A DNA stretch of 64,000 nt, taken from contig CAZTAM010000002.1 of NCBI GenBank assembly GCA_964611625.1, positions 89,168 through 153,167 on the forward strand, in the 5' to 3' direction. This DNA comes from an uncultured Nitrospiraceae bacterium. GTDB taxonomy: Bacteria; Nitrospirota; 9FT-COMBO-42-15; HDB-SIOI813. The position numbers and the translations under genes are program-made. Positions 1 to 48,661 of this stretch are shown one piece after another. Position 1 is the stretch's first letter. Each line of letters begins with the position of its first letter. A model generated the notes under the pieces. The model saw nothing but the letters and a program-made list of their open reading frames with translations, had not been told where the DNA came from and made no database searches.

Positions 1-1350
1 TGCCTCTGCTGATATATCCTGAAAATCTTTCTGGCTGATTCCATCTCTCCCAGAGACTTAAGGGCATTCACAGAATTAAGTGCAGCCTCCCTGTTGCCGG
101 GGTCAGCCTCAAATACCTTTAGAAAAAATTTCAGGGCCGTCAACGTCTCACCTTTACTCCAGTAAACAACTCCAAGATTATTATAAGAAACTAAATAATC
201 AGGGTCTGATTCACGCGCCTGTGAAAACAGGGTGGCAGCCTGACTCACATCACCATGACTAAATATATCCTCCCCTTCGAGGTTCAGCTCCCTTGCCTTA
301 AGCTCTTTTTTCATTATTGTCAGAGGCCTGGCTGCCCCTGCAGCCCATCCCTTATCATTCAGTTTATGAATTGCCCGGTCAAACGCATCCTCCCAGTTCG
401 GGACCTGACGAAGAAGCCCGGGATGCGTAAATATCTCCTCATCCTGTGTAAAACCCTGAGGGTTCAATGGGACAAAGTGGACAGGAAGGTCATGACCTAT
501 GCACCAGTCTGTGAATTCCACCAGTTTAGGTATGCTGCTCTTCATTACTACTGCTGCAATATTAATGTTCCAGTCCAATCCATGCTTCCTTCCAGTCTCC
601 CTGAACTCCAAAATGTTGCGTTCAACCTGTTTCCACTGCCCTCCATTCCTTATATATTCATAAGCATCGCCCATTGAATCCAGACTTATACATAGGTTAA
701 TTCTCCTTAAGCTTCTCAATTTATCCAGATAGCGGTGGATTAGTGTCCCGTTGCTAAAGAGTGAAAGCTTCACGTCGGAAAAATCAGGATCGCGTATTAA
801 CATATCAATGAACTTTCTGGCATTGGGAATAAGAAACGGTTCTCCTCCGATAATTGCAATTTCATTTGCCATGGTCATGTAATCCTTAATGCCGTCCAGA
901 ATTTCCAGAGGCAGTTGTCTTTTGTCATTAACTCTCATATTTTCCTGACAACACATGATACACTTCAGATTGCAGATAAGACCGAAATTAAGATAATATT
1001 TTACGGGATAAGAGTCTACGACCTCCGCGCGGTTATTGTAATTTTCAATGGCCTTCATCCAGTTACTCTTCTGCCTTTCATTTATTGAATCCGGTATATC
1101 CATAAATGTGGCGGCAGAGCCGTATCTGATATACTGGCATCCTTCACAACCAGTCCCTGCAGCATTGTTGGATGTGATGACTTTTCTTACATTCCTCATT
1201 TTCGACCCATTCCAATAGCCATCAATATTTAACGGCGTGAATGGATCAATACAATCCTTTTCCAGCCTGAAGTAGCAGCAGCATCCTGTCTTCAGATTAT
1301 ATTCAATCTGCATCTCAAACCACGGCTGTGAGCAACCGGCAAGTTCCATA
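1..1350 (-). CDS. Radical SAM protein with Cys-rich N-terminal extension (paralog A). The N-terminus is at 1350 and the ORF runs off the window start; a TPR-like region begins near the edge.
   Basis: My own translation of the minus strand from the ATG at 1350 gives MELAGCSQPWFEMQIEYN..GCCCY..GTGCEGCQ...CNLKCIMCCQ (CxxxCxxC radical-SAM motif). It is collinear and highly similar to the 1366..3060 product. AGGAGG RBS 6 nt upstream. It is missing from the ORF track because there is no in-window stop. Confidence 0.7.
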
Positions 1351-1365
1351 ATTCCTCCTATATAC

Positions 1366-3060
1366 CTACTGACTCATACCTGTATCAACTGACTCCAACC
1401 CAGTCATCCTGAATCTGATTTCATTGTAATTTCGTAAAGACCTCATTTCGAGATCCAGGACCTTGCCTGCAAGCCTGGCTCTTCCTTCGCTTAAAAGCCT
1501 GTTGATCTTAGAAACCACACCGATCATACCAATGTTCATGTCAGCTTCGGAGAGGGGGATACCCAGTACCCTGATATGACCGGAAAGAGTAATGTTTAGT
1601 TTGTCTTCCTCTACCCGGATATCAGGTGCTGGACAAGTCAGCCTGCCTGACTCGTCTGTTGAAATGTCCGGGCAATATATGGCTGCTATGGCCCTCGAAA
1701 TATCCTCATCTGAAATATTAGTCTTAAGAAAAAAGATATAAAGCCTCATTGCCTCATCATGTTGCCCCATTTCACACAAAAGTCGTCCGCAATTGAGGAC
1801 TGCGTTCCGGTTGAAGGGTTCCATACTAAGGGCCTCTCTGAAATGACTTACGGCCTCTCCCTGTTGCCCAAGGCGCCAGGATGTAACACCAAGGTTATTC
1901 AGTGCATCCGCAGATAAACTATCATTTTTCAGCGCCTCCTTGAATTTGTCATGGGCAATTTTAACCCTGCCTTTATTGAATAACTCTTCTCCCTCAAGGA
2001 CAAGCAATCTTGACTTCAGTTCCCTTTTCATGAGCCTCAAAGGTCTTACCCCTGTTTCTATCCATCCTTTAGAGGTCAGTTTCTCTATTGCTGCGTCAAA
2101 CTTGTCTTCCCATCCTTCTATCTCTCTAAGCAGGCCTGGATTATGAAATATCTCTTCCTGTCTGGTAAATCCCTGGGGATGAATGGGAACAAAGTGGACG
2201 GGAAGATCGTTTGAGATACACCAGTCAACAAATTCAGGAAGCCTCTCAAGGCTCCTCTTCATAACAACACACCCTATCTTGATATTCCAGTCTGCCTTAT
2301 TAGCAGCCCCGGTATCCCTGAATCGCAGGACATTTTTCTCTGTTTTTTGCCATTCTGCCCCCTGCCTGATATCTTCGTAACAGTTTCCAGTTGAATCAAG
2401 GCTTACCCATATAGTTACCCGCTTCATTTTTTCCAATAACTTCATATGCCTGTCAAGCAAAGTTCCATTTGTTACAATGGATAACTTATGCCCCGAGTAA
2501 TCCTTATCATTGGCAAAGGCCTCGATAAACCTCAATGCGGTCGGAATGAGCAAAGGCTCCCCTCCGATCACCATAATCTCATTAGCCGGCAGGAGGTATT
2601 CTTTCAATGACAGAAGAAATGCTTCCGGCAGGTTCCGGTTTTCTGCCACACGTGCATTCTGCTGGCAACACATAATGCATTTCAGATTGCATTGCAGGCC
2701 AAAATTAAAATAGTATCTGACCGGCAGCGAATTTATCAGCGTCGTTCCCTGGTTATAGTTTTCAAGTGCCTTAAGCCAGTTATCCCTCTGTGTTTTATTA
2801 ATACCATTATCTATCGCAGTAAAGTCAGTCAGAGATCCGTACCTGAGGGCCTGACACCCTTCACAGCCAGTTCCGGTCAGGCTGTCGGAACTCAAATCCC
2901 TTCTGATCGCCTGCAGGGTCATGGAGTTCCAGTAATCTTTTATGGATGTGGGCCTGTCAAACCGGACTCTATCACGATCATGTTTGTAATAGCAGCAGCA
3001 TCCCGCTGTACCATTGTATTCAATCTGCATTTCAAACCATGGCTGTAAACAACTAATCAT
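1366..3060 (-). CDS. Radical SAM enzyme fused to C-terminal TPR repeats (paralog B)
   Basis: 564-aa ORF. N-terminal QPWFEMQIEYN..GCCCYY..GTGCEGCQ, then GLQCNLKCIMCCQ (CxxxCxxC) at about residue 120, then TPR-like repeats (ALNNLGVTSWRLGQQGEAVSHFREAL...). GAGGG RBS. Confidence 0.75.
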   Translation of the reverse strand: MISCLQPWFEMQIEYNGTAGCCCYYKHDRDRVRFDRPTSIKDYWNSMTLQAIRRDLSSDSLTGTGCEGCQALRYGSLTDFTAIDNGINKTQRDNWLKALENYNQGTTLINSLPVRYYFNFGLQCNLKCIMCCQQNARVAENRNLPEAFLLSLKEYLLPANEIMVIGGEPLLIPTALRFIEAFANDKDYSGHKLSIVTNGTLLDRHMKLLEKMKRVTIWVSLDSTGNCYEDIRQGAEWQKTEKNVLRFRDTGAANKADWNIKIGCVVMKRSLERLPEFVDWCISNDLPVHFVPIHPQGFTRQEEIFHNPGLLREIEGWEDKFDAAIEKLTSKGWIETGVRPLRLMKRELKSRLLVLEGEELFNKGRVKIAHDKFKEALKNDSLSADALNNLGVTSWRLGQQGEAVSHFREALSMEPFNRNAVLNCGRLLCEMGQHDEAMRLYIFFLKTNISDEDISRAIAAIYCPDISTDESGRLTCPAPDIRVEEDKLNITLSGHIRVLGIPLSEADMNIGMIGVVSKINRLLSEGRARLAGKVLDLEMRSLRNYNEIRFRMTGLESVDTGMSQ

Positions 3061-3074
3061 CTGCGCGCCCTCGT

Positions 3075-5855
3075 TTAATTATGATCTGATACCAGTTGAT
3101 TGCCGCTGTCCACTTGGCTCGAAATTATTTCACGCAAACGCAGCAATACAAATCCGGCTTCGTCATAATTACCAAGTTCTGTCTGTATCATTTTGACAGC
3201 CAGGCTAATGTTGCCTTTCGTAAGGTAATTATTGATTCTTTTAATAATATCTTTCAGATGCGGCTTTTTTTTGACGGCCTTGACAAAGGACACACCCAAT
3301 ATCTTGAAGGAATCGCTTATCTTTATTTCATGGAATGAGTTTGTAACATTTATGTCAAATCGCGGAAAGGTAATCGGTTCGGAGGAGTCATTGAGCGTAA
3401 ACCAGAACCAGTGTCCCCCGGGGGAGAATAGATCATTTCCAAGGACTTTCTGCATTTCCTCATATTTTTCTTTTACCCTCACAATCTCCCTGTCAAAGCT
3501 ATGGTCCGCCGAGTCAAAAGCAATTCCGTTACGGGAGACGAAATCCACTACGGCAACAGACTGTTCTACCGCAGAATCAATGTTTCCAAGTCTTACCCTC
3601 GGGCCTTCCCAGTTGTTCCCTCTCCAAAGCCTTTGCCCGTTGTAGAGAGAATTTTCCCGCGGGATATATCTGGCGTCTGATAGATCATGCATAATAACCA
3701 GATTAGGTAGGGAGGATATCTTTGGTAGAATTGAACCTAAAACACACTCTGCTACATCAAAACCATGCGCATCCCAAAAGAGCAGACACCGTTTGACCCC
3801 CTTAAACAGTGCGTTATAATCGAATGTAAGGATGTTTCCATTCAGTATATGAAGATTATTAAACCAGTCTTCTTCTACTACATCAAGAACCCTGTGTTGA
3901 GTGAGGTTCTCCCAGTCATTTGAGACGCACAGGCTTACAACCCTGCATTCCAGCCCCTCTTGTCTCAGGTTGTTAGCTACCTCTGTATAGGCGCATGTAG
4001 AGTTACCACGACCTCGACCCAGTTCAAGGATGAGGTCGGGCTTGAATTCAAGTGCAGAGGCCATCAGCTGGGCCCACTGAGTCGTCAAAAGGTCACCCTT
4101 GTGATCGACTGCATCCGAAAGGTTGATAATCCGGTCGTGCAGAGACTGAAGCTTGAAACGCTGGTTCCAGTATGCCTTAGCCGGAGTAAAGGGCCTGTGG
4201 TCAGGGATGACCTCGCCACAAATGCTATCCATGGATTCCCTAAAGGCATCATGTCTTTTCATATTAATAAAAGTAAGGTTTTCCTCCTGACCATCGTTCT
4301 GGGATTCGATCTTAACGAGCCCGAATCCTTTCGACAGCATCTCGGATATAACCTTGTTTTTATCTGAGGCCCCTTCGTATATTTGTTCAGACGTTACCGT
4401 TACCTCAAGCTGCAGTTTCTTTATCTTTTGTATCTCATGGCCTGCCGACATTACAACATCCAGATCATGCCCCTGGGCATCTATCTTTACGAATTCAACT
4501 TCGCTAAATGAGAGTCTCTCAAGTAGCTCATCAAGACGCATCACAGGGACCACCCTTTTTTCAACAACGTCAAGGCCGGATTTGTCCCTCCATTCAGCTA
4601 AACCATTCTCATTGAAAGGCCTGAGTGAGCTTGAAACATGATTACTGGTGACATAAAAATCGGCAATCCCTTTTTCGGGTCCGACAGCTGAAGGAATTGC
4701 AAAAAGGCGGGAATGTCTGCTGTTCAGATGATTGTACTTTTCCAGTATCGGCTCAAAGGCTATTATTGCAAGATCTTTATTGTCATCAAGATATGGAAGT
4801 GTAGTCTCACCTTCGTGGGCGCCAACGTCAATCCAGACTTTTCTGATTCCGTTGTGAAATACGATTTTTCCGGTCTCACTATCAGTGACCAGATAATCTT
4901 CAATCTTTACCGGCTGCTGTGACAGGTTTGACAGTTTGTCGGGAACAACTTCTGTTACTTCAAGCCTGAAATTAAGCAGGCCCCAGTCGTCACCGTTTAA
5001 TACAGCCGGCTTTTCTTCCTCTAACATCTTCCGACAGTCTTTCTCATATCTCTCATAATCAGTAAAAGGCCTCTTTGCATGTTCGGATCTGTCATGTTCC
5101 TGGTGGTAAATTGGTCCGCCGATAATTACCTGTTCAAGTCCGAGCGCCCTGGCCATAAAACAGATGTAACCGTCAATGAAACTGTGACTCTTCAGTTCCG
5201 GATACCCCCTGAGTCTGTGCCACTTATCAGCAGACATGAGGAAGAAGTCACCAGCAGCGTTAGTATGGACCCTGTTTTCAGAATCTGAAGAGAGAGATGG
5301 GATTGAACGGTATCCATCTGTTAAAGGTAGAGTGCCATCGGGCAGATTGACCCTGAAAGCCAGATCATGCGATAGAAGAAGCTGCCTGTCTGCAGGAAGA
5401 GCAGCAGGGATATTATGTTTGACATCATAGCGGTTGGCCCTGTAATAGCAATCCTCTGACAACTTATCAGAAGACAGATATTGAAAAAGTTCTCTGCTGA
5501 ACAGGATATCAGGGTTGGTTGCAACGATATATTTGCCTGACGCACGTCTTATACCGACATTCTTGGCAAGATATTCAAACATGGGCATTTTGTCAGAATT
5601 ATCAATCTGACTGTGGACATCTTTTGGAACTGATATTATGCGGCCCTTAATTCTGGGCCATTTTATGGCATAAAGCAGCTTCTGTTTTTCAGATGGGGGG
5701 TTCCATTCCACAACTATCAATTCAGAGTCAAGACTGTACTCTTTGCATAGTTCGACATAGATATTAATAAAATTCTGAAACCTGTACAGGAAATCCCCTC
5801 CATAGTTGTCGTTTCTTGCAGCAACAACGAAGCTAAAATCAGGTTTATTGTTCAT
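3075..5855 (-). CDS. Multidomain sugar-modifying enzyme: N-terminal GT-A-like glycosyltransferase, central FkbM-family methyltransferase, C-terminal class I (TylF/CmcI-like) O-methyltransferase
   Basis: 926 aa. N-terminus FSFVVAARNDNYGG..IVVEWNPP..ATNPDILF (DxD-like). Middle VWIDVGAHEGETTLPYL...FEP (FkbM motif GAHxGxxT). C-terminus LILELGRGRGNSTCAY...FWDAHGFD (SAM-binding G-x-G motif). 4-nt overlap with the upstream gene. Confidence 0.6.
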   Translation of the reverse strand: MNNKPDFSFVVAARNDNYGGDFLYRFQNFINIYVELCKEYSLDSELIVVEWNPPSEKQKLLYAIKWPRIKGRIISVPKDVHSQIDNSDKMPMFEYLAKNVGIRRASGKYIVATNPDILFSRELFQYLSSDKLSEDCYYRANRYDVKHNIPAALPADRQLLLSHDLAFRVNLPDGTLPLTDGYRSIPSLSSDSENRVHTNAAGDFFLMSADKWHRLRGYPELKSHSFIDGYICFMARALGLEQVIIGGPIYHQEHDRSEHAKRPFTDYERYEKDCRKMLEEEKPAVLNGDDWGLLNFRLEVTEVVPDKLSNLSQQPVKIEDYLVTDSETGKIVFHNGIRKVWIDVGAHEGETTLPYLDDNKDLAIIAFEPILEKYNHLNSRHSRLFAIPSAVGPEKGIADFYVTSNHVSSSLRPFNENGLAEWRDKSGLDVVEKRVVPVMRLDELLERLSFSEVEFVKIDAQGHDLDVVMSAGHEIQKIKKLQLEVTVTSEQIYEGASDKNKVISEMLSKGFGLVKIESQNDGQEENLTFINMKRHDAFRESMDSICGEVIPDHRPFTPAKAYWNQRFKLQSLHDRIINLSDAVDHKGDLLTTQWAQLMASALEFKPDLILELGRGRGNSTCAYTEVANNLRQEGLECRVVSLCVSNDWENLTQHRVLDVVEEDWFNNLHILNGNILTFDYNALFKGVKRCLLFWDAHGFDVAECVLGSILPKISSLPNLVIMHDLSDARYIPRENSLYNGQRLWRGNNWEGPRVRLGNIDSAVEQSVAVVDFVSRNGIAFDSADHSFDREIVRVKEKYEEMQKVLGNDLFSPGGHWFWFTLNDSSEPITFPRFDINVTNSFHEIKISDSFKILGVSFVKAVKKKPHLKDIIKRINNYLTKGNISLAVKMIQTELGNYDEAGFVLLRLREIISSQVDSGNQLVSDHN

Positions 5856-6874
5856 AGTATCCTTTCGATGTCATTACACCAGGCACTGAAGAGACGTTTT
5901 GTATTTTCCGGAATAAAGTCAAGACCCTCAAGGCATCCATACAGTTGCCTGAGATTTTCAAAGACATTTCCTTTATCCAGATTCACTTCCATAAGCTCCC
6001 GGCAGAACCTGTCGGTATTCTCCATTCCATATACTTCATCCCTGAGATTGACCCAGTGATTCTGCTTGTTTCTCTCCTGCCATACAAAAGGGCGACCAAA
6101 ATGAACATGGTAGTCTGTTTCCATCATTACCCTTTCAGCTATATATGAACCCCATATATCATCGAACCTTCCAACATCTGTAAGAACCATCATTAACGGG
6201 GCAAGCTCACGAACATAAGCCGTATTTTGAGAATTTACCGGTGTAAAAACGCCATTGGCAACTATAATACCGGAATTCAACAAGTCAGACAGGTGCATAA
6301 CACCGGGATTTGTAACGATCCTATCCATAGCATCTATATCAGGGTCGCCGAGCCACAGTCCTGCGGCAATGCCTATCTTTCTGCTGCTGACCGGTTTCAG
6401 GGATATTTCAGTGTCCTTTTTGCGTTGACTGTAAGGAAATCCCCTGTGATATACCCTGGGCAGAAGGAAATCCCCAATATTAAACCATTTGGATTCCGGA
6501 GAAGCCATTAATCCTGAATATGCAGTTCCAAAGATGGCCCTTACGGCGCTGAAATAATCGTCTCCAATTGGAATATTATCGTCATCAATCGTTACAATGA
6601 CATCAGGTTTGAGTCTGATTGCCTCAAGGAGCACAATATTCCTGCGCATTATCTTGTTCCACCCGATGACCTCAGAACATTCATAGCCAAGTTTGTCCTG
6701 GTCCGTGTCGCTGTAATAAATAGCATTCCCAAGTTCAGCAGCCATCCTTGCGACCTTCTCGTGAGGAGTTTTCCTGTCTCCGGCAATGAGGATAGTAACA
6801 TCCGGCCCCATACTGCGGTAACGCTCAAGAACTTCGGGAACAAAAATGGTAGTTGTAATAAGCGCTATCTTCAT
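5852..6874 (-). CDS. Putative glycosyltransferase (DxD-containing, RGP/STELLO-like fold)
   Basis: 340 aa, MKIALITTTIF...VTIDDDNIPIGDDYF. Acidic DDD motif and a nucleotide-binding-like N-terminus. Overlaps both neighbours by 4 nt. The family assignment is tentative. Confidence 0.4.
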   Translation of the reverse strand: MKIALITTTIFVPEVLERYRSMGPDVTILIAGDRKTPHEKVARMAAELGNAIYYSDTDQDKLGYECSEVIGWNKIMRRNIVLLEAIRLKPDVIVTIDDDNIPIGDDYFSAVRAIFGTAYSGLMASPESKWFNIGDFLLPRVYHRGFPYSQRKKDTEISLKPVSSRKIGIAAGLWLGDPDIDAMDRIVTNPGVMHLSDLLNSGIIVANGVFTPVNSQNTAYVRELAPLMMVLTDVGRFDDIWGSYIAERVMMETDYHVHFGRPFVWQERNKQNHWVNLRDEVYGMENTDRFCRELMEVNLDKGNVFENLRQLYGCLEGLDFIPENTKRLFSAWCNDIERIL

Positions 6875-8193
6875 AAAAAGGCTTTTCCAAGAGGGACATA
6901 CCTTATCTTACTGCCGAGGGTTTTAGCATCCAGCATCCTCCAGCAGTCAATTACTGTAGTAGGATTATTAACAATATTTATTTCGCTAATGTTCCTGAAT
7001 TCAGGCGCCCGGGTAGCGATAACGACAGTTGAGGCTTTTTCAAAACATTCCTTAACTGATGATGCATAAATTACTTTGTTGCCCAACTTTGACCGTGATT
7101 CATCCATTGCACCAGGGTCGTAAACGGTAACCAGTATTTTGTTTTCGATAAGTTTTTCTATAAGCCTTATTGATGGCGACTCTTCAATAACAGGGGTATT
7201 CGGCTTATATGCAAGTCCTAGTATTGCCACAGTCCGCTCTTTCATATTATCAAGGTGCTTCATTACGAATTTCACAAGATGCCCTATCTGTGACCTGTTC
7301 ACCTCATCTGTTGCCTTAGCCAGTTTAGCGTCAATGCCGTAATCCTTTGCAAATGCCGCAAATGCCCTGTTGTCTCTCGGAAAACATGGACCGCCAAAGC
7401 CGAGTCCTCCCTTCAGATAATACGGAGATATTCTTCTGTCTGAACCGAGGGCTTGTGTTATGTCGTCAATATCAGCCCCTGAAACTTTTTCACATATGTT
7501 TGCAAGGGTGTTTGCAAAGCTAATCTTCATGGTTATATAAGAGTTGAGGCTTATCTTTGTAATCTCGGCGCTTATAACAGACATCCTGGCAATGCAGGGG
7601 GAGTTCTCGCAGCCTTTTTCGTAGACCCTCTCAAGCATTTCTCCTGCAACAGCGCTGCTTTCACCGATCAAAACCATATCAGGATTGAGGAAGTTTGTTA
7701 TGACACTGCCGAGGGCGATAAATTCAGGGTTGTAGCAGACACCAAAGCCATTATTAAGCTCTCGTCCTGAATATCTTTCTATCAGGGGAATTAATATTTT
7801 CTCTGTTGAACCGGGGGAAACTGTAGAGGTAATGACAAACAAATGGTATGGCTTACTGCTTTTTTTCAGGGCCTGGGCAAGTGGTGCCAGGGCAGACATC
7901 ATATAATCATTTGCGAATTGGCCATCGTCCCTGCTTGGAGTAGGGACTATCAAAAAAGTAATATCAGAGCTGTTAATCGCCTCTTCATAGTCATCAGTAG
8001 CCCTTAATTTATTACCAGCAGACGAAATTAACTCTTGCAGCCTTGGCTCATCAACCGGTGCTCTACCCTGATTGATGGCATCTATAAAATCTTTATTGAT
8101 ATCTACACCTATGACATCAAAACCTCTGTATGCGAAACACGAAGCAGTGCACGCACCAAGTTTTCCCAGTCCTATAACTGAAAGCCTGTTCAT
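6871..8193 (-). CDS. Nucleotide-sugar dehydrogenase (UDP-glucose/GDP-mannose dehydrogenase family)
   Basis: MNRLSVIGLGKLGACTASCFAYRGFDVIGVDIN is a Rossmann NAD-binding N-terminus typical of UDP-sugar 6-dehydrogenases, followed by the ...GGPCFPRD motif. The start is moved to the internal ATG at 8193, which has a GAGGGAA RBS; the ORF-track start at 8232 lacks one. Confidence 0.85.
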   Translation of the reverse strand: MNRLSVIGLGKLGACTASCFAYRGFDVIGVDINKDFIDAINQGRAPVDEPRLQELISSAGNKLRATDDYEEAINSSDITFLIVPTPSRDDGQFANDYMMSALAPLAQALKKSSKPYHLFVITSTVSPGSTEKILIPLIERYSGRELNNGFGVCYNPEFIALGSVITNFLNPDMVLIGESSAVAGEMLERVYEKGCENSPCIARMSVISAEITKISLNSYITMKISFANTLANICEKVSGADIDDITQALGSDRRISPYYLKGGLGFGGPCFPRDNRAFAAFAKDYGIDAKLAKATDEVNRSQIGHLVKFVMKHLDNMKERTVAILGLAYKPNTPVIEESPSIRLIEKLIENKILVTVYDPGAMDESRSKLGNKVIYASSVKECFEKASTVVIATRAPEFRNISEINIVNNPTTVIDCWRMLDAKTLGSKIRYVPLGKAFL

Positions 8194-8217
8194 CTTTAAT
8201 TCCCTCGTTGTAACCCT

Positions 8218-8247
8218 GATGCATGGATGCATGGGGGATGCATGGGG
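8218..8247. repeat. Three tandem copies of a (G)ATGCATGG(GG) unit in the leader of the dehydrogenase gene
   Basis: Read directly: gatgcatgg / atgcatggggg / atgcatgggg. Each unit contains the palindromic hexamer ATGCAT. Confidence 0.8.
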
Positions 8248-8251
8248 TCAC

Positions 8252-8298
8252 GTCTTGCAATAAAGCATCCTTTTTATAAGGATGCTTTATTGCAAGAC
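8252..8298. repeat. Perfect 21-bp inverted repeat (hairpin with 5-nt loop) in the intergenic region between the radical-SAM and dehydrogenase genes
   Basis: gtcttgcaataaagcatcctt-tttat-aaggatgctttattgcaagac. The arms are exactly complementary and no U-tract follows on either strand. Confidence 0.85.
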
Positions 8299-8358
8299 CT
8301 GATCCCCGATCATCCATTCGATCTGACGATCATCAACCCCCGATACTACGCTCAGGGA

Positions 8359-9597
8359 TTAAATGAATTTATGAGTCATGCTGTCGTTTAATATGACCTG
8401 TTCATAAATCTGATTATGCGGTTGATAGGTGCATCTGGGACATTCATTTGCAACCTTAATATTATCATGCATTTTCCAATGGGCATCCCCTCCCCATAAC
8501 CTTTGAATATCGTTAACATCCACTATATTGCTTGCAAGTTCCAGCTTCGAGTCACCTCTTCTGTCGCAGCAAAGCCCAAGGACAAAAGAGTCCGGGGGGG
8601 CATCTTTGTCAGAAGGCGGCGCTATAACAGCTGTCATAAATATTGCGTGACACTTGTTAAAATAGTTTGCCCTGTCAAACTGGTTATTAAATTTATGAGT
8701 AACGCCATAAACCCCGAAGGTCTCATCATCCAGTTCAATGGCCATAGAGATCTGTTCATTGAAATGCTCAATTTCTTCTTTAGTAAAATGAATTTCCTGT
8801 TCAGTGCCAAGATTGTCCCATGTCGTACCAGCCGGACGAAAGTGGATGTTCTTGCATCCGATCTCTTTCGCAATTTTTGCCGCCTGAAAGACCTCTTCAA
8901 TGTTGTCTTTGTAAAGGAGGTACTTGTAGCTGACGCCATATGCAGGGTGTTTGAATCCAAGCCTGTTATTGTGCATTCGTGAATACTCTACAAGAGTGGC
9001 CATGTTTTCAATTATTCTGTCAAATGTGTCGTTATGTGCTGACAACCCCTTTTGCTTATTAAATGTGCCTGATGCTGCCGCATCAACTGATGCCCCTACC
9101 CAAGTACAGTGTGAAAGAGAATCAATGTACTTGTCTATCATTATTCCGTTTGTAACCACTCCCACTTCAATTCCATTATCAATAACTTTATCAATAAAAC
9201 CGGCAATGCCTTTATTTATGAGCGGCTCTCCACCACCAGCAATACAAATGGCCTCCACTCCCGGCTTCCAGTAGCGACTGCCTTCCCCCCAGCGGGGAAG
9301 AAAATCTGCAATACTGGAAAGTGCCTTGTCAGATAACATTCCTTTACGTTCCTTTCGAACAAATTCGGCATTGCACCATACGCAATCCAGGTTACAGACA
9401 TTTGTAGGATCTATAGTAATGAGGATTGGAGGCGGTATAGGCCTCCCTCTTTTTATCTTGTTCCACCTCTCAACATGAGTCAGTAATTTATAACTATTGA
9501 ATGGATTCCATTGCTTGCTAGGATTCCATTCTTTCTTTTTTCCAATCACAGAGACAGATCCTTCTCCGTTTCTTCTTTGAGTAAGCAGATTAGCCAT
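8359..9597 (-). CDS. Radical SAM enzyme (third one; different architecture, Cys-rich C-terminus, possibly SPASM/twitch-like)
   Basis: ITIDPTNVCNLDCVWCNAEF (CxxxCxxC at about residue 73). C-terminal LGLCCDRRGD...CPRCTY cysteines. The start is moved to the ATG at 9597 (MANLLTQ), which has an AGGAG RBS 9 nt upstream; the ORF-track start at 9615 contains the RBS. Confidence 0.7.
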   Translation of the reverse strand: MANLLTQRRNGEGSVSVIGKKKEWNPSKQWNPFNSYKLLTHVERWNKIKRGRPIPPPILITIDPTNVCNLDCVWCNAEFVRKERKGMLSDKALSSIADFLPRWGEGSRYWKPGVEAICIAGGGEPLINKGIAGFIDKVIDNGIEVGVVTNGIMIDKYIDSLSHCTWVGASVDAAASGTFNKQKGLSAHNDTFDRIIENMATLVEYSRMHNNRLGFKHPAYGVSYKYLLYKDNIEEVFQAAKIAKEIGCKNIHFRPAGTTWDNLGTEQEIHFTKEEIEHFNEQISMAIELDDETFGVYGVTHKFNNQFDRANYFNKCHAIFMTAVIAPPSDKDAPPDSFVLGLCCDRRGDSKLELASNIVDVNDIQRLWGGDAHWKMHDNIKVANECPRCTYQPHNQIYEQVILNDSMTHKFI

Positions 9598-10166
9598 ATT
9601 AAATTCTCCTATCATTTATTCATGAGATTCATTCTATAAAGACAGATGAAACAATATATTTCAGAATCTTATTCTTCCCGGCTTGTTTTAAATAACATAT
9701 TGATATATTTGATATTTCTTATTGACAAGATAGGGATATGCAAATCTCCTGCCATGAAAAGTGGCTTCTTTTCAGCTAAAATCGGTAGGGATGTCAGAGC
9801 ATAATCGTAGGTATAACTGCATGATAATTAAGATAAATATTAAATTTATATCAAACCTGGTTTTTTAATTCAGGACAGGGCAGATATGACGCATGTCAAT
9901 GTATTGACAATATTGTTTGACGCAATTCGATGAATACTACGTCCTGAATGTATCCCTCCATAACAGGAAACCTGCGGCCGGGCAACTCCCTGCTCATCAC
10001 CCTTTTACCGTTAAGAAAATAGTAAAATCCTTATCCCTGACAGCCACCATCAATAAACCTTTCTTCCACATCGTTTATATTATTTTTTAGTGGTTTGTTG
10101 CAAAATATCAGGATCAGATCGTTGTTACCATGACATAACGAGCAAAAAAAAGATTGGCAGGGAAAT

Positions 10167-10511
10167 TTAAATATTAAGATTGAAATTCACGCCAGTTTGA
10201 TTATAATTTATATTATTGATGAACAACTTCATCTTAGAAACTGAGCACAAGTTATCAGATAGGGCGTTTAGGTTTGTTTTTATGATATCCTGAATATCAC
10301 CGTCCACAGCCAGGATATTCTTAATTGTTAAGTTTATTGGGCCATGATTAATTATCTCGCTGTTAAGACTTTGAATCTCATCAATGATCATCTGACGCTT
10401 TTCGATATATTCTAACGCTTCATCAAACCTTTCTTCCTGAAGGGCATTTAACAGATTCTCTGCCAGTACAAGTAGTTTTTCGTACAAGCTGCATGCTATT
10501 TCACTACTCAT
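10167..10511 (-). CDS. Small helical protein in the FliT position (putative FliT-like export chaperone)
   Basis: About 114 aa from the internal ATG (MSSEIACSLYEKLLVLAENLL...). That ATG overlaps the fliS stop as ATGA, implying translational coupling. It sits after fliD-fliS. There is no diagnostic motif, so the call rests on position and size. Confidence 0.35.
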   Translation of the reverse strand: MSSEIACSLYEKLLVLAENLLNALQEERFDEALEYIEKRQMIIDEIQSLNSEIINHGPINLTIKNILAVDGDIQDIIKTNLNALSDNLCSVSKMKLFINNINYNQTGVNFNLNI

Positions 10512-10924
10512 ACCCTCAACTCCAGTCCGGTAGAAATTGCCTCTTTGGGAATATCTACCGCGTTCTTCTTGCCAAGATCTTTCCACGCCGACCTTAATAC
10601 ATCAAGTACTTTTTCAGCATCGTCCAGTGCCTTTTCATCATTTTTCATATTGGCGTTGATTAGCCTGTCCATGACAAAATCATAGAGCCTGCTGAGATTT
10701 TTTGCTATCTCTCCGCCTTCCTCCATGTTGAGCGAGTTTATCAACTCCCCGACGACTGATGATGCCTTGCCTATATATAAACCCTTGCCTGCAATGTCAC
10801 CGAGCTCGATCCTTTTTCTTGCAACCTTGATAAAATTAATAGCACCATCATGTAGCATGAAAACAAGCCTTGTCCTGTCTGAAGTATTAACTTCCACCTT
10901 CCTGTATTCTGATAATTGCTGCAT
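10508..10924 (-). CDS. fliS: Flagellar export chaperone FliS
   Basis: MQQLSEYRKVEV..RLVFMLHDGAINFIKVAR..LYIGKASSVVGELINSL is a typical FliS four-helix sequence. It follows fliD. Confidence 0.9.
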   Translation of the reverse strand: MQQLSEYRKVEVNTSDRTRLVFMLHDGAINFIKVARKRIELGDIAGKGLYIGKASSVVGELINSLNMEEGGEIAKNLSRLYDFVMDRLINANMKNDEKALDDAEKVLDVLRSAWKDLGKKNAVDIPKEAISTGLELRV

Positions 10925-10944
10925 GTTATTTGCCTCCCTATTAT

Positions 10945-12339
10945 TTATTTATTCCATCTTGTAATTTGACTGCTCAGAAATGAGCTTTGTGATGTTAGTC
11001 CACTTAGAAGTGATTCCAACGCTGAAAATCGTCTTCGCAGATCATCCTCTGTTTTTTCCAATCTTGTTTCAAGGTTTTTAATATTACTTGCAATACTTGT
11101 AACGACTGATTGAAGACCACTTTTTCTGATGGTCAGGGCGCCATCTGTGGTTTTTGTGATTGTGTCAGCGTAACTCCACATCTGGTTGGCTATGCCGGTA
11201 GTAGTTGCTGTGAATAGCTTTGCCACATCGTCAATTTTTGAGGAAAGCTTATCACCCAGTGTGGTGCTGTTTATAGTAAGTTGTCCATCCTTTGAATTGG
11301 TAGTTATACCTATTTCCGAGAGGGAATCCACATCAGCTGAAGCGGCGGAAACAGTGCTAATTGCCATCTCCTTCAATCTTCTTACCACGTCTCGTGCCGT
11401 CGAATCACCGAGTAAAGGCCCTCCTATCCTGGTAGTGCTGTTCCATGTTGATTTGGCAGCTACATAATTAATTACATCGTTATACGCATTTACAAAGTCG
11501 CTGATCTTTTTCTTAATCGAGTCCGTATCGTTTGTAACTGAAATAGTAGCTGAGCTAGTGGATTCCATTTTAAGAGTAATGGTTAATCCAGAAATAACAT
11601 CTGACACATCATTCGAGCTGCTTGTTATGTCAATACCATTTATCCTGAGTTTGGCATCCTGGGCGGACTGATTAGTGGTAAATGCACCACTGGTAAAATT
11701 TACTGTACTGCCTGTGCCATCCAGGGTTGTTCCGGAATCAATGCTGATGACCTTTGTGCTGCCGCTATCAGCGCCAGTAAGAGCCAATTTGTAAACAGTA
11801 CCATCATATATTATCGTAGCATTAACACCAGGGTTGCTTGTATCACTATTGATTAGGTCCCTCAGACCTTCAAGGGTAGTACCGTCTGAAACTGTTAGTG
11901 ATCTCTGGGTGCCTGCATAGGTATACTGAAAGACTTTATCTGAACCACTGCCGTTTACTGTTGTAGTAATGGCTGCAGTGCCGGCCGTATGCGATTTCTG
12001 CTCCACCTGGGCGAGCTGTATCTTACCTGCAATTGAATGAGATGATATATTATAGCTCCCGGCAGCAGCAGTATTCGTAACCGCCGCATCTAATAAAGTA
12101 CTGTCACTTACAGATGCCTTTTTTGCATAAAAGTTGGAAGTAGTCCTCAGTGCGTCAGTGGCGGTCTTAAATGCCGAGACTTTTGACGCGAGGTCGCTAT
12201 AAACTGTTATTTTATCATTGTAGGCAGTCTGTTTGCTTTGGAGTAGTTTAACAGGCCTGCGCTCTAACTCCATAAGCTTTGAGATTATTTCTTCTGCATT
12301 AATTCCGGAACTTAGACCTGAAACAGAAAAAGTAGACAT
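10945..12339 (-). CDS. fliD: Flagellar filament cap protein FliD
   Basis: MSTFSVSGLSSGINAEEIISKLMELERRPVKLLQSKQTAYNDKITVYSDL is the canonical FliD N-terminus. 464 aa. Confidence 0.9.
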   Translation of the reverse strand: MSTFSVSGLSSGINAEEIISKLMELERRPVKLLQSKQTAYNDKITVYSDLASKVSAFKTATDALRTTSNFYAKKASVSDSTLLDAAVTNTAAAGSYNISSHSIAGKIQLAQVEQKSHTAGTAAITTTVNGSGSDKVFQYTYAGTQRSLTVSDGTTLEGLRDLINSDTSNPGVNATIIYDGTVYKLALTGADSGSTKVISIDSGTTLDGTGSTVNFTSGAFTTNQSAQDAKLRINGIDITSSSNDVSDVISGLTITLKMESTSSATISVTNDTDSIKKKISDFVNAYNDVINYVAAKSTWNSTTRIGGPLLGDSTARDVVRRLKEMAISTVSAASADVDSLSEIGITTNSKDGQLTINSTTLGDKLSSKIDDVAKLFTATTTGIANQMWSYADTITKTTDGALTIRKSGLQSVVTSIASNIKNLETRLEKTEDDLRRRFSALESLLSGLTSQSSFLSSQITRWNK

Positions 12340-12370
12340 CCATCACGCCCCTTCATCATAATAATAATAC

Positions 12371-12727
12371 TTATGCAACTACTTCAAATAAGTGTCCTTC
12401 ATGTTCCGTGATCTTCCTGGAATGCTCAACAAACTCCTCCGAAGGTATTTGCCTGATTACATCTCCGCTCTCTTTATCAATAATCTTGACTATTACCATA
12501 TCTACATCATTGTCAATCTCAAATCTGATAGTCCTGTTGTAATAACGTTCAAGATTGGAAATAGCATCTGATATCTCTTTTTTGCTTATTTTATGATTTG
12601 TCCTGTCCTGTGCCGGAAGCGATACAGAGACATCCTTATTCTCATCTCCATTATTCTTTACGACCTTTGACATGACAGTGTTGTCATGATTTCCCACTGT
12701 TATTGCATTAATAGTGTTATCGTTCAT
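12371..12727 (-). CDS. flaG: FlaG family protein
   Basis: ...RFEIDNDVDMVIVKIIDKESGDVIRQIPSEEFV is the FlaG signature. It lies between the flagellin gene and fliD. The internal ATG at 12727 (MNDNTIN) has a GGAG RBS, so the exact start is uncertain. Confidence 0.7.
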   Translation of the reverse strand: MNDNTINAITVGNHDNTVMSKVVKNNGDENKDVSVSLPAQDRTNHKISKKEISDAISNLERYYNRTIRFEIDNDVDMVIVKIIDKESGDVIRQIPSEEFVEHSRKITEHEGHLFEVVA

Positions 12728-12810
12728 TATGGCTTTACTCCGGGAATATGGGGAAGGCAAAGTCAGCAACCCTCCCCATACCCTTATTTATTCGATATTA
12801 CACAGATGTC

Positions 12811-13666
12811 CTATTTTAAGAGCTGTAGCGCCATCTGTGGAATCGTATTAGCCTGTGCTAAAACAGCCATTGAAGCCTGCGTTAATATCTGGTTTTTGGT
12901 GAATATAGCCGTCTCCATTGCGAAATCAGCATCCCTGATACGAGACTCTGCTGCTGAGAAATTCTCAGAAGCTATCCTCAAATTAGAGATCGTTATCTCC
13001 AGCCTGTTCTGAGAGGCGCCAATATCACCCCTCTTACCTGCAACGTTTGAAATTGCACTGTCAATCATGGATAGAGCTGTGGCTGCACTTGCGACAACAG
13101 AGATTGTTGTAGCGGCGCCTGTAAGTCCGAGGGCGCTCTGAGCGTGCAGAGAACCAGCAGCACTAAGTCCTGAAAGAACCGCTACTGTGTTGCCGCTTGC
13201 GTTCTGGAATCCTACCTGCAATGATATGCCTGTTGCACTGAGTGTACCATTCAGCAGTTTCGTTCCGTTAAATTCGGTAACATCAGCAATCCTGTTTATC
13301 TCTGCCGTCAGCGACTGATATTCCTGGTCAAGCTTTCCTCTTTCTGTATCGCCGAGGCTTCCATTGGCTGCCTGCTGTGCCAATTCCCTCATTCTGATCA
13401 GTATGTTGCTTATCTCACCCATGGCGCCCTCTGCCACCTGTGTAAGACTCACCCCATCCTGAGAGTTTCTGATTGCCTGATTGATGCTTCGGCCATGGGC
13501 CCTTAACTTCTCTGAAATGGCCAGACCTGCGGCATCATCCTTTGCAGAATTAATCCTGAGACCTGAAGACAGTCTCTGTATCGAAAGGGTTAGAGATTCG
13601 TTGTTTTTTGTAAGGCTTCTTTGAGCTGTAAGAGATGCAAAGTTCGTATTGATTACTAATGCCATG
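12811..13666 (-). CDS. fliC: Flagellin
   Basis: MALVINTNFASLTAQRSLTKNNESLTLSIQRLSSGLRINSAKDDAAGLAISE and C-terminal ...NTIPQMALQLLK are the conserved flagellin N- and C-terminal domains. A strong GGGAGGAAAG RBS precedes the ATG at 13666; the ORF-track start at 13698 is upstream of the RBS. The protein is short, about 285 aa. Confidence 0.92.
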
Positions 13667-13802
13667 TTACTTTCCTCCCTGTTTTTTGTTGATACCAAAC
13701 CTGTGTTGGTTGGTATTGGGCGTCCTTGCCCTTGTTAGTTACTATGTTTATTCACCTCCTTCTTTTTTTTTATTTTAAATGTAATTGTCCTGTTGGCTTG
13801 TT

Positions 13803-13829
13803 TTTTCGGAATACTATCAGGAAACTTTA
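13803..13829 (-). promoter_or_regulatory. Sigma-28 (FliA)-type promoter for the flagellin operon
   Basis: The minus strand reads TAAAGTTT-N11-TCCGAAAA against the consensus TAAAGTTT-N11-GCCGATAA. It lies about 140 nt upstream of the flagellin ATG. The match was made by eye. Confidence 0.5.
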
Positions 13830-13908
13830 GACATTGTTTTTATGCCATAGTCGTTTTACAGCATTATACAGCACGCATGCAGGGAGCAGAGTATTAAGGG
13901 GATAAGTT

Positions 13909-14361
13909 CTAAGGACTGGGGACAGATATATCTTGTAATACAGGATATCGCAGCGGGTATTTTTCACCTGACAAAACTATCTGTTTTGCCTCAAGCGTCT
14001 TAAGATTTACAATAAGAGGTCCCTGGAGATTTACCGTCATCAGTTCCGGCATTTCATGGGGTATGGTTACTATTGCAAATATGCTGTATCCGTTGTGGCT
14101 GTTTATATTAAGTTCTCTCAAGTCATGCACCTCTATATCACTAAAATATTCAGAACAGAAGAGCAAAGGGTCCATTACCACAAATGTCAGATCAGGATCA
14201 TCTACCGCCTGAAGCCATTTGAACGGTATTTCAGGGTTATTCAAAGTATCTAATACGACGAATCTTTTTACATCAGGAAAACCAAGTAAGCCACTGTGAA
14301 ATGTTATAACCTTATCTTTATCTATTTCAATTTCGCCAAATCGGGATGTACAGATTTTCAT
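13909..14361 (-). CDS. fliW: Flagellar assembly factor FliW
   Basis: MKICTSRFGEIEIDKDKVITFHSGLLGFPDVKRFVVLDTL...FKWLQAVDDPDLTFVVMDP is the FliW family signature. Confidence 0.88.
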   Translation of the reverse strand: MKICTSRFGEIEIDKDKVITFHSGLLGFPDVKRFVVLDTLNNPEIPFKWLQAVDDPDLTFVVMDPLLFCSEYFSDIEVHDLRELNINSHNGYSIFAIVTIPHEMPELMTVNLQGPLIVNLKTLEAKQIVLSGEKYPLRYPVLQDISVPSP

Positions 14362-14370
14362 ATACCTGCC

Positions 14371-14613
14371 TTATGATCCTTTTCTTTTATCTGTCCACAG
14401 ATTGAATAGTCTTTGCATATGCTCTGTTGTCGAAGCAGCGGCCTTTATATTTTCTTCTTTGATCTTTTCATAAATCTCGTCACGATGAACTTTTGTATCT
14501 TTTGGGGCATCTATACCAATACTGACCTGATTCCCTTTTATCTCCAGGATGACAATTCTTATGTCCTTGCCAATCCAGATCCCTTCGCCTGACCTCCTTG
14601 TCAGAATTAACAT
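14371..14613 (-). CDS. csrA: Carbon storage regulator CsrA (flagellar type)
   Basis: [51 protein letters not shown] is the CsrA signature. The start is moved to the internal Met at 14613; the ORF-track start is at 14631. Confidence 0.9.
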
Positions 14614-14648
14614 CATCGCCCTCCTTGGCACTTCATTTAATTATCATT

Positions 14649-15542
14649 TCACCTCAGAAAATCCATAATTGATTGTTGCAGCACTCTGGCTGCCGTTGCC
14701 CTAGATATTTCGAGCATATTCTGCTGCAAGGCTAGTTGTGATATCAAGCTTGTAATATCTGCATCCTCTGTATCACTCCTATACTTTAATAGATTATATT
14801 GCAATGTGTCTATATGGTTCTTTGCAAGCTCCAGCCTGCTTAATTTCACGCCAATCTCTGCACGCCTGTCGTTAATCTGATCCATCCCGGTATCAAGTTT
14901 TGTCATTGCAGCGCCAATAGCAGCAGTATCATTATCATTCATTGCTGTCTTAAGATCACCCATAGCAGCAAGTATATCTGTACCATCACCTGAAGAACCA
15001 AAAACAGCATAACCTGGAATATTTATTGACATGGTGTTTCCGGCATCTATTTCCACATCCATAAATCCATCATCGGAAGAAGTTCCGGTATAATTGCCTG
15101 CATCATCATAAGGTGCAACATCCGTCCTGAAACCTGCAAAGATGTATCTGTTATCATATGTTGTATTTGCTGTTTGCTTCACCTGTTCATATAACTGATC
15201 AACCTCCATAGCCATGGTTCTTCTGTCAGCGGCGCTATATGTCCCGTTGAGGGCAGACAATGCGAGCTCTTTTGCCCGCAGAAGCACATCCTGTGTCGCG
15301 GATACTGCAGTCTCAGTTGCATTCAGGAATGCAGCAGCATTATCTATATTTCGTTGATATTGTCCTGCTTTTGCAATGGCCGAATTATAGTTGATGACTC
15401 TTGCAGCTCCTGCAGGATCATCTGAAGGTTTATTTAACTTCTTACCGGATGAGACGCTGTTCTGGAGGTCCAGTAACTTCTCTGAGTTCCTCTGCATATT
15501 CCCCATAACAGTGTTATAAAGTACTTTACTTGAAACGCGCAT
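14649..15542 (-). CDS. flgL: Hook-filament junction protein FlgL (HAP3)
   Basis: MRVSSKVLYNTVMGNMQRNSEKLLDLQNSVSSGKKLNKPSDDP is flagellin-like. The C-terminus ...ATAARVLQQSIMDFLR is the FlgL end. Confidence 0.88.
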   Translation of the reverse strand: MRVSSKVLYNTVMGNMQRNSEKLLDLQNSVSSGKKLNKPSDDPAGAARVINYNSAIAKAGQYQRNIDNAAAFLNATETAVSATQDVLLRAKELALSALNGTYSAADRRTMAMEVDQLYEQVKQTANTTYDNRYIFAGFRTDVAPYDDAGNYTGTSSDDGFMDVEIDAGNTMSINIPGYAVFGSSGDGTDILAAMGDLKTAMNDNDTAAIGAAMTKLDTGMDQINDRRAEIGVKLSRLELAKNHIDTLQYNLLKYRSDTEDADITSLISQLALQQNMLEISRATAARVLQQSIMDFLR

Positions 15543-15562
15543 CTCTTATGTCCTTTTCCATC

Positions 15563-48645: not shown

Positions 48646-48661
48646 TGCAATGTACATGCCA
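48646..48661 (-). promoter_or_regulatory. Sigma-54 (-24/-12) promoter candidate for the fliL-fliM-fliN-... operon
   Basis: The minus strand reads TGGCAT-GTACA-TTGCA with exactly 10 nt between GG and GC. The predicted start site is about 45 nt upstream of the fliL ATG. Confidence 0.55.

Follow-up and report, generated by a model that had tools for sequence, protein, structure and literature searches.

Flagellin O-glycosylation islands have been described in several bacterial groups, among them the pseudaminic/legionaminic acid and Maf transferase loci of Campylobacter and Helicobacter, the FlmG system of Caulobacter, and the tetratricopeptide repeat (TPR)-bearing glycosyltransferases of Pseudomonas, Clostridioides and Paenibacillus. 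To our knowledge, nearly all work on flagellin glycosylation concerns aerobes and microaerophiles, whose chemistry is nonulosonate- or rhamnose-based. Here we analyse a 64,000-nucleotide stretch of DNA (hereafter the window; positions 89,168 to 153,167 of contig CAZTAM010000002.1, assembly GCA_964611625.1) from an uncultured Nitrospiraceae bacterium, in which an island of six genes (A–F, Table 1) follows flagellin-flaG-fliD-fliS-fliT and encodes three radical S-adenosylmethionine (SAM) enzymes. The protein domains that we identified, the way they are fused, the conserved synteny and the lack of membrane segments suggest, with a probability of roughly 60%, that this DNA holds the first half of an island for cytoplasmic protein glycosylation in an anaerobic host, with flagellin as its most likely target, in which radical SAM enzymes take the place of oxygen- or NAD-dependent sugar tailoring.

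The island shares a number of features with described flagellin glycosylation loci: it adjoins flagellin, fliD and fliS; all of its enzymes are soluble and cytoplasmic; it combines sugar-nucleotide synthesis with transferases and methyltransferases; and, as in FlmG, TPR modules are joined to catalytic domains. Unlike the Campylobacter/Helicobacter-type islands, it has no nonulosonate genes and no clear Maf in the window or the next 10 kb, and it does not belong to that group; the initial annotation of this DNA had likewise noted that pseudaminic and legionaminic acid genes were missing, and we found no pse, leg or neu gene either in the 64-kb window or in the adjoining 10 kb. A further difference from the known flagellin islands is the number of radical SAM enzymes, three here and as many as eight in related islands. 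Transmembrane-like segments are absent from all island proteins, and the island genes include no flippase, polymerase, Wzx/Wzy, ABC exporter or polyprenyl-phosphate priming transferase, a composition that fits cytoplasmic protein glycosylation. Flagellin glycosylation islands, TPR-guided flagellin transferases, GT75 mutases and N-terminal-twitch radical SAM proteins are all known or catalogued already; by contrast, we found no literature description of radical SAM enzymes in any flagellin glycan pathway, nor of the two gene associations described below, the pairing of F with a UDP-glucose dehydrogenase (UGDH) gene and that of N-terminal-twitch enzymes with a domain that we call X.

Every gene of positions 1..17,245 lies on the minus strand, and the remainder of the window, from 17 to 64 kb, is a single large flagellar and chemotaxis cluster. 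The co-directional, tightly packed arrangement downstream of the flagellin genes that had been noted at the outset is borne out: C/D and D/E each overlap by 4 nt, and the gaps are 14 nt (B/C), 16 nt (A/B) and 126 nt (E/F). Gene A, previously ended at 1350, needs correcting by one base. Since 569 nt separate fliT from F, the island is probably a transcription unit of its own. The assignment of the bacterium to Nitrospirota agrees with its FliI, FlgG and flagellin, which belong to clusters (90% identity) where the members that bear a name come from Nitrospirota MAGs.

The most conserved element of the island is the pair formed by F and E, a radical SAM gene and a UGDH gene. We read nine genomic contexts of F (the window, L004, L008/L020, L013, L014, L015, L018, L021 and L022), and in all nine a UDP-glucose-dehydrogenase-type gene comes next or next but one after F. 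Flagellar genes adjoin F in four of them, each from a different lineage. A metagenome-assembled genome (MAG) of the Desulfobacterales has the order FlgK-FlgL-CsrA-FliW-flagellin-FlaG-FliD-FliS-x-F-UGDH-methyltransferase-GT2/TPR, which is the layout of the window in another phylum; in Brocadia, F-UGDH is preceded by FlgL-FliW-CsrA and a TPR protein; and in a relative from a JGI metagenome, F-UGDH directly follows FliS or FliT. Common to these three is a layout in which fliS/fliT is followed by an F-type radical SAM gene, UGDH, and then methyltransferases, TPR proteins and giant glycosyltransferases. These contexts lend support to the earlier proposal of a glycan island tied to flagellin genes, and they shift its centre: the island had been described as built around radical SAM-TPR fusions, yet such fusions account for at most four of the 98 representatives of the A/B family, the window's own A and B included.

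The family of F is large (about 1000 matches), is 62–76% identical across Desulfobacterota, Planctomycetota (Brocadia, Phycisphaerae), Geobacter and Nitrospirota, and has 'radical SAM protein' as its sole given name. F scores 50.4 bits on PF04055 (cutoff 29.5), with its cluster motif at residues 68–75; the start at 9597 is supported by homologues, and an alternative ATG lies at 9615. Further cysteines are invariant in the family (118, 248, 316, 343, 344, 386 and 389), a set compatible with a C-terminal auxiliary cluster. In sequence comparisons with solved structures, the glucuronate decarboxylase BlsE comes out first for F (E 4e-6 when the family profile is used), in a match limited to F residues 66–187; on the BlsE equivalog TIGR04466, F reaches 29.3 bits where the cutoff is 400. 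The substrate of BlsE comes from UDP-glucuronate, which is what E is expected to make. Decarboxylation is thus a candidate reaction for F, one of several, and not a finding. Its partner E, which had been recognised as a nucleotide-sugar dehydrogenase, is confirmed as such by TIGR03026 (362.7 bits, cutoff 189.8), and falls short of the equivalogs AglM (335 against 670 bits) and TuaD (269 against 700 bits). The start of E is ambiguous (8193–8232): the gene is called with a length of 440 aa in one assembly and of 453 aa in a second. Thermodesulfovibrionia-type relatives carry an additional gene of the NAD-synthase family (ATP-dependent amidating) between F and UGDH (L004 1575–2504; L020 545–1510), which is compatible with amidation of a uronic acid to a uronamide.

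The other two radical SAM enzymes, A and B, are paralogs (49% identity over 441 residues, E 3e-166) that pass the PF04055 cutoff with 55.9 and 53.4 bits, in agreement with the initial count of three radical SAM genes. Their CNLKCIMC motif had been placed unusually far from the N-terminus, at about residue 120, and does indeed lie at 126–133 in A and 124–131 in B. It is preceded in both by the block QPWFEMQIEYN..GCCCY..GTGCEGCQ, whose conservation had also been pointed out: five cysteines (Cys4, Cys22, Cys23, Cys66 and Cys69 in B numbering), together with the three of the SAM cluster, do not vary among the 28 closest relatives. Pfam SPASM (PF13186) covers residues 4–69 of B at 25.5 bits (cutoff 21.5) and is matched by 18 of the 98 family representatives, with a best E of 1.5e-20. 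Judged by these profile matches, the block is predicted to be an N-terminally placed twitch/SPASM-type auxiliary Fe-S domain. The suggestion that it serves as an auxiliary metal-binding module therefore stands; that the arrangement was undescribed does not, since the architecture is catalogued as NF033640 (N_Twi_rSAM, twitch domain-containing radical SAM protein; E 1e-42), in which a cysteine-rich twitch/SPASM-like domain likewise precedes the CxxxCxxC core.

Unlike members of NF033640, A and B stay below its curated cutoff of 170 bits, at 146.1 and 145.3 bits; they match model positions 5–300 of 398 and leave the last ~100 unmatched. Ten sampled relatives also fall short (86–144 bits), so that by score the A/B group is a sister clade, of about 268 clusters, outside the curated family and with the same architecture. 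We know of no biochemically characterised member of either NF033640 or this sister clade. The AlphaFold2 model of B is confident (predicted local distance difference test score, pLDDT, 83), and a Foldseek search with it against the Protein Data Bank (PDB) returned generic radical SAM matches (BlsE at the top, then SkfB, NifB, MoaA and the anaerobic sulfatase maturase anSME) and TPR matches, with no functional assignment. B also has a C-terminal tail of ~100 residues (~465–564; window 1366–1668) with pLDDT below 50 and no family match, which is missing from A and from all other radical SAM-TPR relatives.

Relatives of A and B provided a number of clues to their chemistry. Close relatives are rare, with ~28 in 5.8 billion clusters and six A/B-type loci in 185,579 species genomes, and a profile of the core found 268 clusters (50% identity) at E<=1e-30 among 1.84 billion representatives. 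The shared core of ~345 residues is fused at its C-terminus to differing domains: TPR repeats (P0001–P0010; found by Pfam in both A and B), GT2 (P0011, P0012, P0027, P0028), SAM methyltransferase domains (P0013), or domain X, the homologue of the third domain of C (P0019, P0022, P0024). Domain X also lies directly upstream of the core in the window, L004, L007, L008 and L018, and a homologue of the N-terminal domain of C lies directly downstream of it, within a giant glycosyltransferase. In L017 an A/B-type core is preceded by FliW-CsrA-UGDH, while UGDH and a C-type GT-A domain accompany the core in a SAR11 single-cell genome and an alphaproteobacterial MAG. SAR11 bacteria are non-flagellated, which indicates that the core module is not restricted to flagellar glycans. 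Together, these fusions and neighbours point to glycan chemistry for the A/B core rather than to chemistry on flagellin side chains, and so disfavour the side-chain modification that the initial annotation had offered as an option. The SAR11 locus (L010, Pelagibacteraceae AH-326-P21, 3780–11044) encodes an N-terminal-twitch radical SAM relative of 33% identity with UGDH and a homologue of the GT-A domain of C.

The radical SAM-TPR proteins are monophyletic, and the A/B duplication is older than the split from a second lineage, which has both types on one contig. TPR repeats are also found on unrelated radical SAM classes and on methyltransferases of related islands, which makes them look like a shared docking or targeting module. 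Examples are a B12-binding radical SAM-TPR-methyltransferase of 1117 aa (L004 3926–7279), a SPASM-radical SAM-TPR protein of 895 aa (L019 1150–3837) and a radical SAM-TPR protein of 491 aa (L020 5045–6520).

Genes C and D complete the island. C had been read as a fusion of a glycosyltransferase with FkbM and TylF methyltransferases; the first two domains hold, and TylF gave no significant match. Its first 310 residues have no Pfam match, and a confident AlphaFold2 model with Foldseek was needed to reveal a GT-A fold, closest to glucuronic acid-transferring polymerases; the nearest structures are chondroitin polymerase K4CP (1.5e-8), GalNAc-T2, heparosan synthase and LARGE1. The model is poor over the FkbM and X domains, with pLDDT below 50 across long stretches. 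For domain X there are weak hints of CmcI/Methyltransf_24 (E 0.02–0.08), with RMNT_CmcI weakly matched in four of eight members, and sequence and profile searches against the PDB gave no match even at E 10. D, which had been called a DxD glycosyltransferase, is instead a homologue of the GT75 mutases (PF03214, 45.8 bits, cutoff 23.8), a group that includes MtdL, Hyg20 and the plant UDP-arabinopyranose mutases/RGPs. It matches MtdL (7yua/7xpr) with E 7e-27, aligns with its motifs DDD, PRGFP, GDPDxDA, NSQN and RFxD, and keeps the equivalents of residues described as essential in the MtdL structure paper: DDD, Arg159 (nucleophile), Asp195 (base), Ser228/Gln229, Arg257 and Asp260, with Ser, Gln and Arg among them binding the substrate. 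D differs from those mutases in its surroundings, which are flagellar and not those of antibiotic biosynthesis or of the plant cell wall. We considered D as a conserved partner of F in a route to arabinofuranose and rejected it, as no D homologue was present in the other loci compared; the link is specific to this lineage.

From the computational evidence we infer the following scheme, in which every substrate and every reaction is a proposal. E would oxidise a UDP-hexose to the uronic acid, and F, with its likely C-terminal auxiliary cluster, would convert that product to an unusual sugar in an oxygen-independent reaction, by decarboxylation (as in BlsE), epimerisation or oxidation. The mutase D would supply a furanose donor, and C would transfer the sugar through its GT-A domain and methylate through FkbM and possibly a CmcI-like domain. 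A and B, acting together with the adjacent domain X, would be two-cluster enzymes, N-terminal twitch first and SAM cluster second, that abstract hydrogen from a sugar carbon in the manner of BtrN, HygY and NeoN. Radical SAM enzymes that act on sugars also include AprD4, SpeY and BlsE, and several of them carry one auxiliary cluster; the sugar substrate of A and B is presumed here, and the known carbohydrate-tailoring twitch enzymes have their auxiliary domain at the C-terminus, unlike A and B, which have it at the N-terminus. The TPR arms may dock A and B onto flagellin or the glycosylation machinery; the TPR domain of FlmG binds flagellins (PMC7591256) and provides a precedent for such docking. 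Giant GT2/TPR proteins and CgeB/Maf-like proteins encoded just outside the window would then assemble the glycan.

A more specific version of this scheme goes further than we would readily go, and we regard it as speculative. F would be the founding member of a widespread radical SAM family that, with neither oxygen nor NAD, turns E-made UDP-glucuronate into a pentose or rearranged sugar, for example by BlsE-like decarboxylation to UDP-L-arabinopyranose; D would in this genome convert the product to a furanose donor; and TPR-docked A and B would use radical chemistry to edit the glycan attached to flagellin. Such a pathway, if real, would be the first to tailor protein glycans with radical SAM enzymes.

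A number of observations weigh against a dedicated flagellin glycan pathway with this chemistry. That flagellin of this bacterium is glycosylated at all is predicted from gene content. The window and the next 10 kb contain no strong Maf or known flagellin transferase, the only hint being a weak Maf_flag10_N match (E 0.009) of a CgeB-like protein beyond the window. The similarity of F and B to BlsE is limited to the generic radical SAM core (19% identity, TM-score 0.44). In the HMMER alignment of D, the equivalents of the Mn-binding His287 and of His292 are Gln, and its mutase activity is not assured. The possible assignment of domain X as a methyltransferase depends on the marginal E values given above. 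Finally, F-UGDH cassettes and relatives of A and B occur away from flagellar genes: in Geobacter, Phycisphaerae, L018, L022 and SAR11 no flagellar gene lies within 8–10 kb of them. These occurrences suggest that the enzymes are specific to glycans and not to flagellin.

This last point is also the main argument for a broader alternative, in which the locus is a general cell-surface glycan island, for an S-layer or other protein glycan, lipopolysaccharide or capsule, and its flagellar neighbourhood reflects coincidence or co-regulation only. We consider this credible but unlikely: adjacency to filament genes recurs independently in at least four lineages of different phyla, the island proteins include none of the export, polymerisation, priming or membrane components listed above, and TPR-bearing enzymes are typical of protein-targeted glycosylation. 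A second alternative keeps flagellin as the target and moves the chemistry to its polypeptide, with A and B epimerising, C-methylating or cross-linking side chains and the TPR serving as substrate recogniser. It draws on the binding of flagellin by the TPR domains of FlmG, and on the many SPASM/twitch enzymes that are peptide maturases, to which there are weak NCBIfam matches. All of these matches are below 55 bits against cutoffs of 340–850, and on these scores we rejected an identity as maturase of ribosomally synthesised and post-translationally modified peptides. Nor did the Pfam scan find an RRE/PqqD domain, or the fliT-F spacer contain a precursor-like or other plausible small open reading frame. 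The fusion of the same core to GT2 and methyltransferases, its company with UGDH in non-flagellated bacteria, and the rarity of TPR in the family, where two of the at most four cases are the window's own, weigh against a polypeptide substrate, and we judge this explanation improbable.

The radical SAM genes could also be housekeeping enzymes (HemW, anSME, MoaA, or haem and cofactor maturases) that merely happen to be located here, a possibility raised in the initial annotation, and some sources do label relatives automatically as 'sulfatase maturation enzyme AslB'. No such family came near its cutoff in NCBIfam: anSME scored 22.6 against 349 bits and MoaA 58 against 284 bits, and identities as anSME, MoaA, NirJ/Ahb and HemW, with scores of at most 63 bits and cutoffs of 131–850, are effectively refuted. 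There is no sulfatase nearby, and synteny is conserved with sugar-pathway genes only. This explanation is scarcely tenable. Taken together, these comparisons leave a flagellin-directed glycan island with radical SAM sugar tailoring as our preferred reading.

The distribution of the island and its relatives in Nitrospirota, Desulfobacterota and anammox Planctomycetota suggests a use of radical SAM enzymes by strict anaerobes in making flagellin glycans. Its recurrence in other phyla, again beside flagellar genes, suggests a route to unusual flagellin sugars that needs no oxygen. Two uncharacterised families, that of F and the N-terminal-twitch family paired with domain X, gain concrete candidate substrates that can be tested in vitro, and either is a possible source of new sugar chemistry and of new nucleotide-sugar donors. 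Because these substrates are directly testable, the locus should be of interest to glycobiologists and radical SAM enzymologists alike.

Table 1. Features of the island and of the adjoining flagellar genes (positions within the window; aa, amino acids)
Feature	Position	Strand	Basis or remark
Gene A, N-terminal-twitch radical SAM + TPR	1..1349	-	cut by window start; full protein P0009, 460 aa
Gene A, twitch block	1119..1349	-	
Gene A, CNLKCIMC	951..974	-	
Gene A, TPR	from ~278 downwards	-	
Gene B, N-terminal-twitch radical SAM + TPR + tail, 564 aa	1366..3060	-	Pfam Radical_SAM, SPASM, TPR
Gene B, twitch block	2836..3060	-	
Gene B, CNLKCIMC	2668..2691	-	
Gene B, TPR	1675..1995	-	
Gene C, three-domain protein, 926 aa	3075..5855	-	GT-A + FkbM + domain X
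Gene C, GT-A-fold glycosyltransferase domain	about 4926..5855	-	AlphaFold2 + Foldseek
Gene C, FkbM methyltransferase	about 4323..4829	-	Pfam and TIGR01444
Gene C, domain X, ELGRGxGNST motif, possibly CmcI-like	about 3276..4187	-	weak RMNT_CmcI
Gene D, GT75 (RGP family) NDP-pyranose/furanose mutase homologue, 340 aa	5852..6874	-	DDD motif 6578..6586
Gene E, UDP-glucose/NDP-sugar 6-dehydrogenase, 453 aa	6871..8232	-	three UDPG_MGDP_dh Pfam domains
Gene F, radical SAM, 412 aa	8359..9597	-	Pfam PF04055; CNLDCVWC at 9373..9396
Sigma-54-type promoter-like element TGGCAGGAGATTTGCA	9739..9754	-	~140 nt upstream of F; intergenic
fliT	10167..10511	-	Pfam family of called gene, translation
fliS	10508..10924	-	Pfam family of called gene, translation
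fliD	10945..12339	-	Pfam family of called gene, translation
flaG	12371..about 12727	-	Pfam family of called gene, translation
Flagellin, 284 aa	12811..13665	-	Pfam; translation; cluster named FliC of Nitrospirota

The island continues on the source contig past window position 1 (L001 13117–21695). This part encodes a 1563-aa protein with a GT-A-like domain, two GT2 domains and TPR; the 562-aa CgeB-like protein (Glyco_trans_1_2 and DUF3880); a further glycosyltransferase of 691 aa; and an insertion sequence element, whose DDE transposase (18185–19093 of L001) interrupts the island. Among related islands, that of L018 (GCA_003575185.1) is the one with eight radical SAM genes; it also has a GT9 gene, several methyltransferases and split transketolase-like genes (DXP_synthase_N/Transketolase_N and Transket_pyr), a content that suggests branched or chain-extended sugars.

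An Rfam scan of 1–20 kb gave no match. The sigma-54 pattern TGGCA-N6-TTGCW has two perfect matches in the 64 kb, both intergenic and on the coding strand: the element upstream of F (Table 1) and a second at 48646–48661 (minus strand), directly upstream of fliL. With ~0.44 matches expected by chance, and two or more in 8 of 100 shuffles, these hint at co-regulation of the island with flagellar genes. A fliW-csrA pair lies at 13909–14631, between flagellin and flgL, and in Brocadia, Desulfobacterales and L017 such a pair also stands ahead of the glycan cassettes; this placement suggests that flagellin is under post-transcriptional control of the FliW/CsrA type in these lineages.

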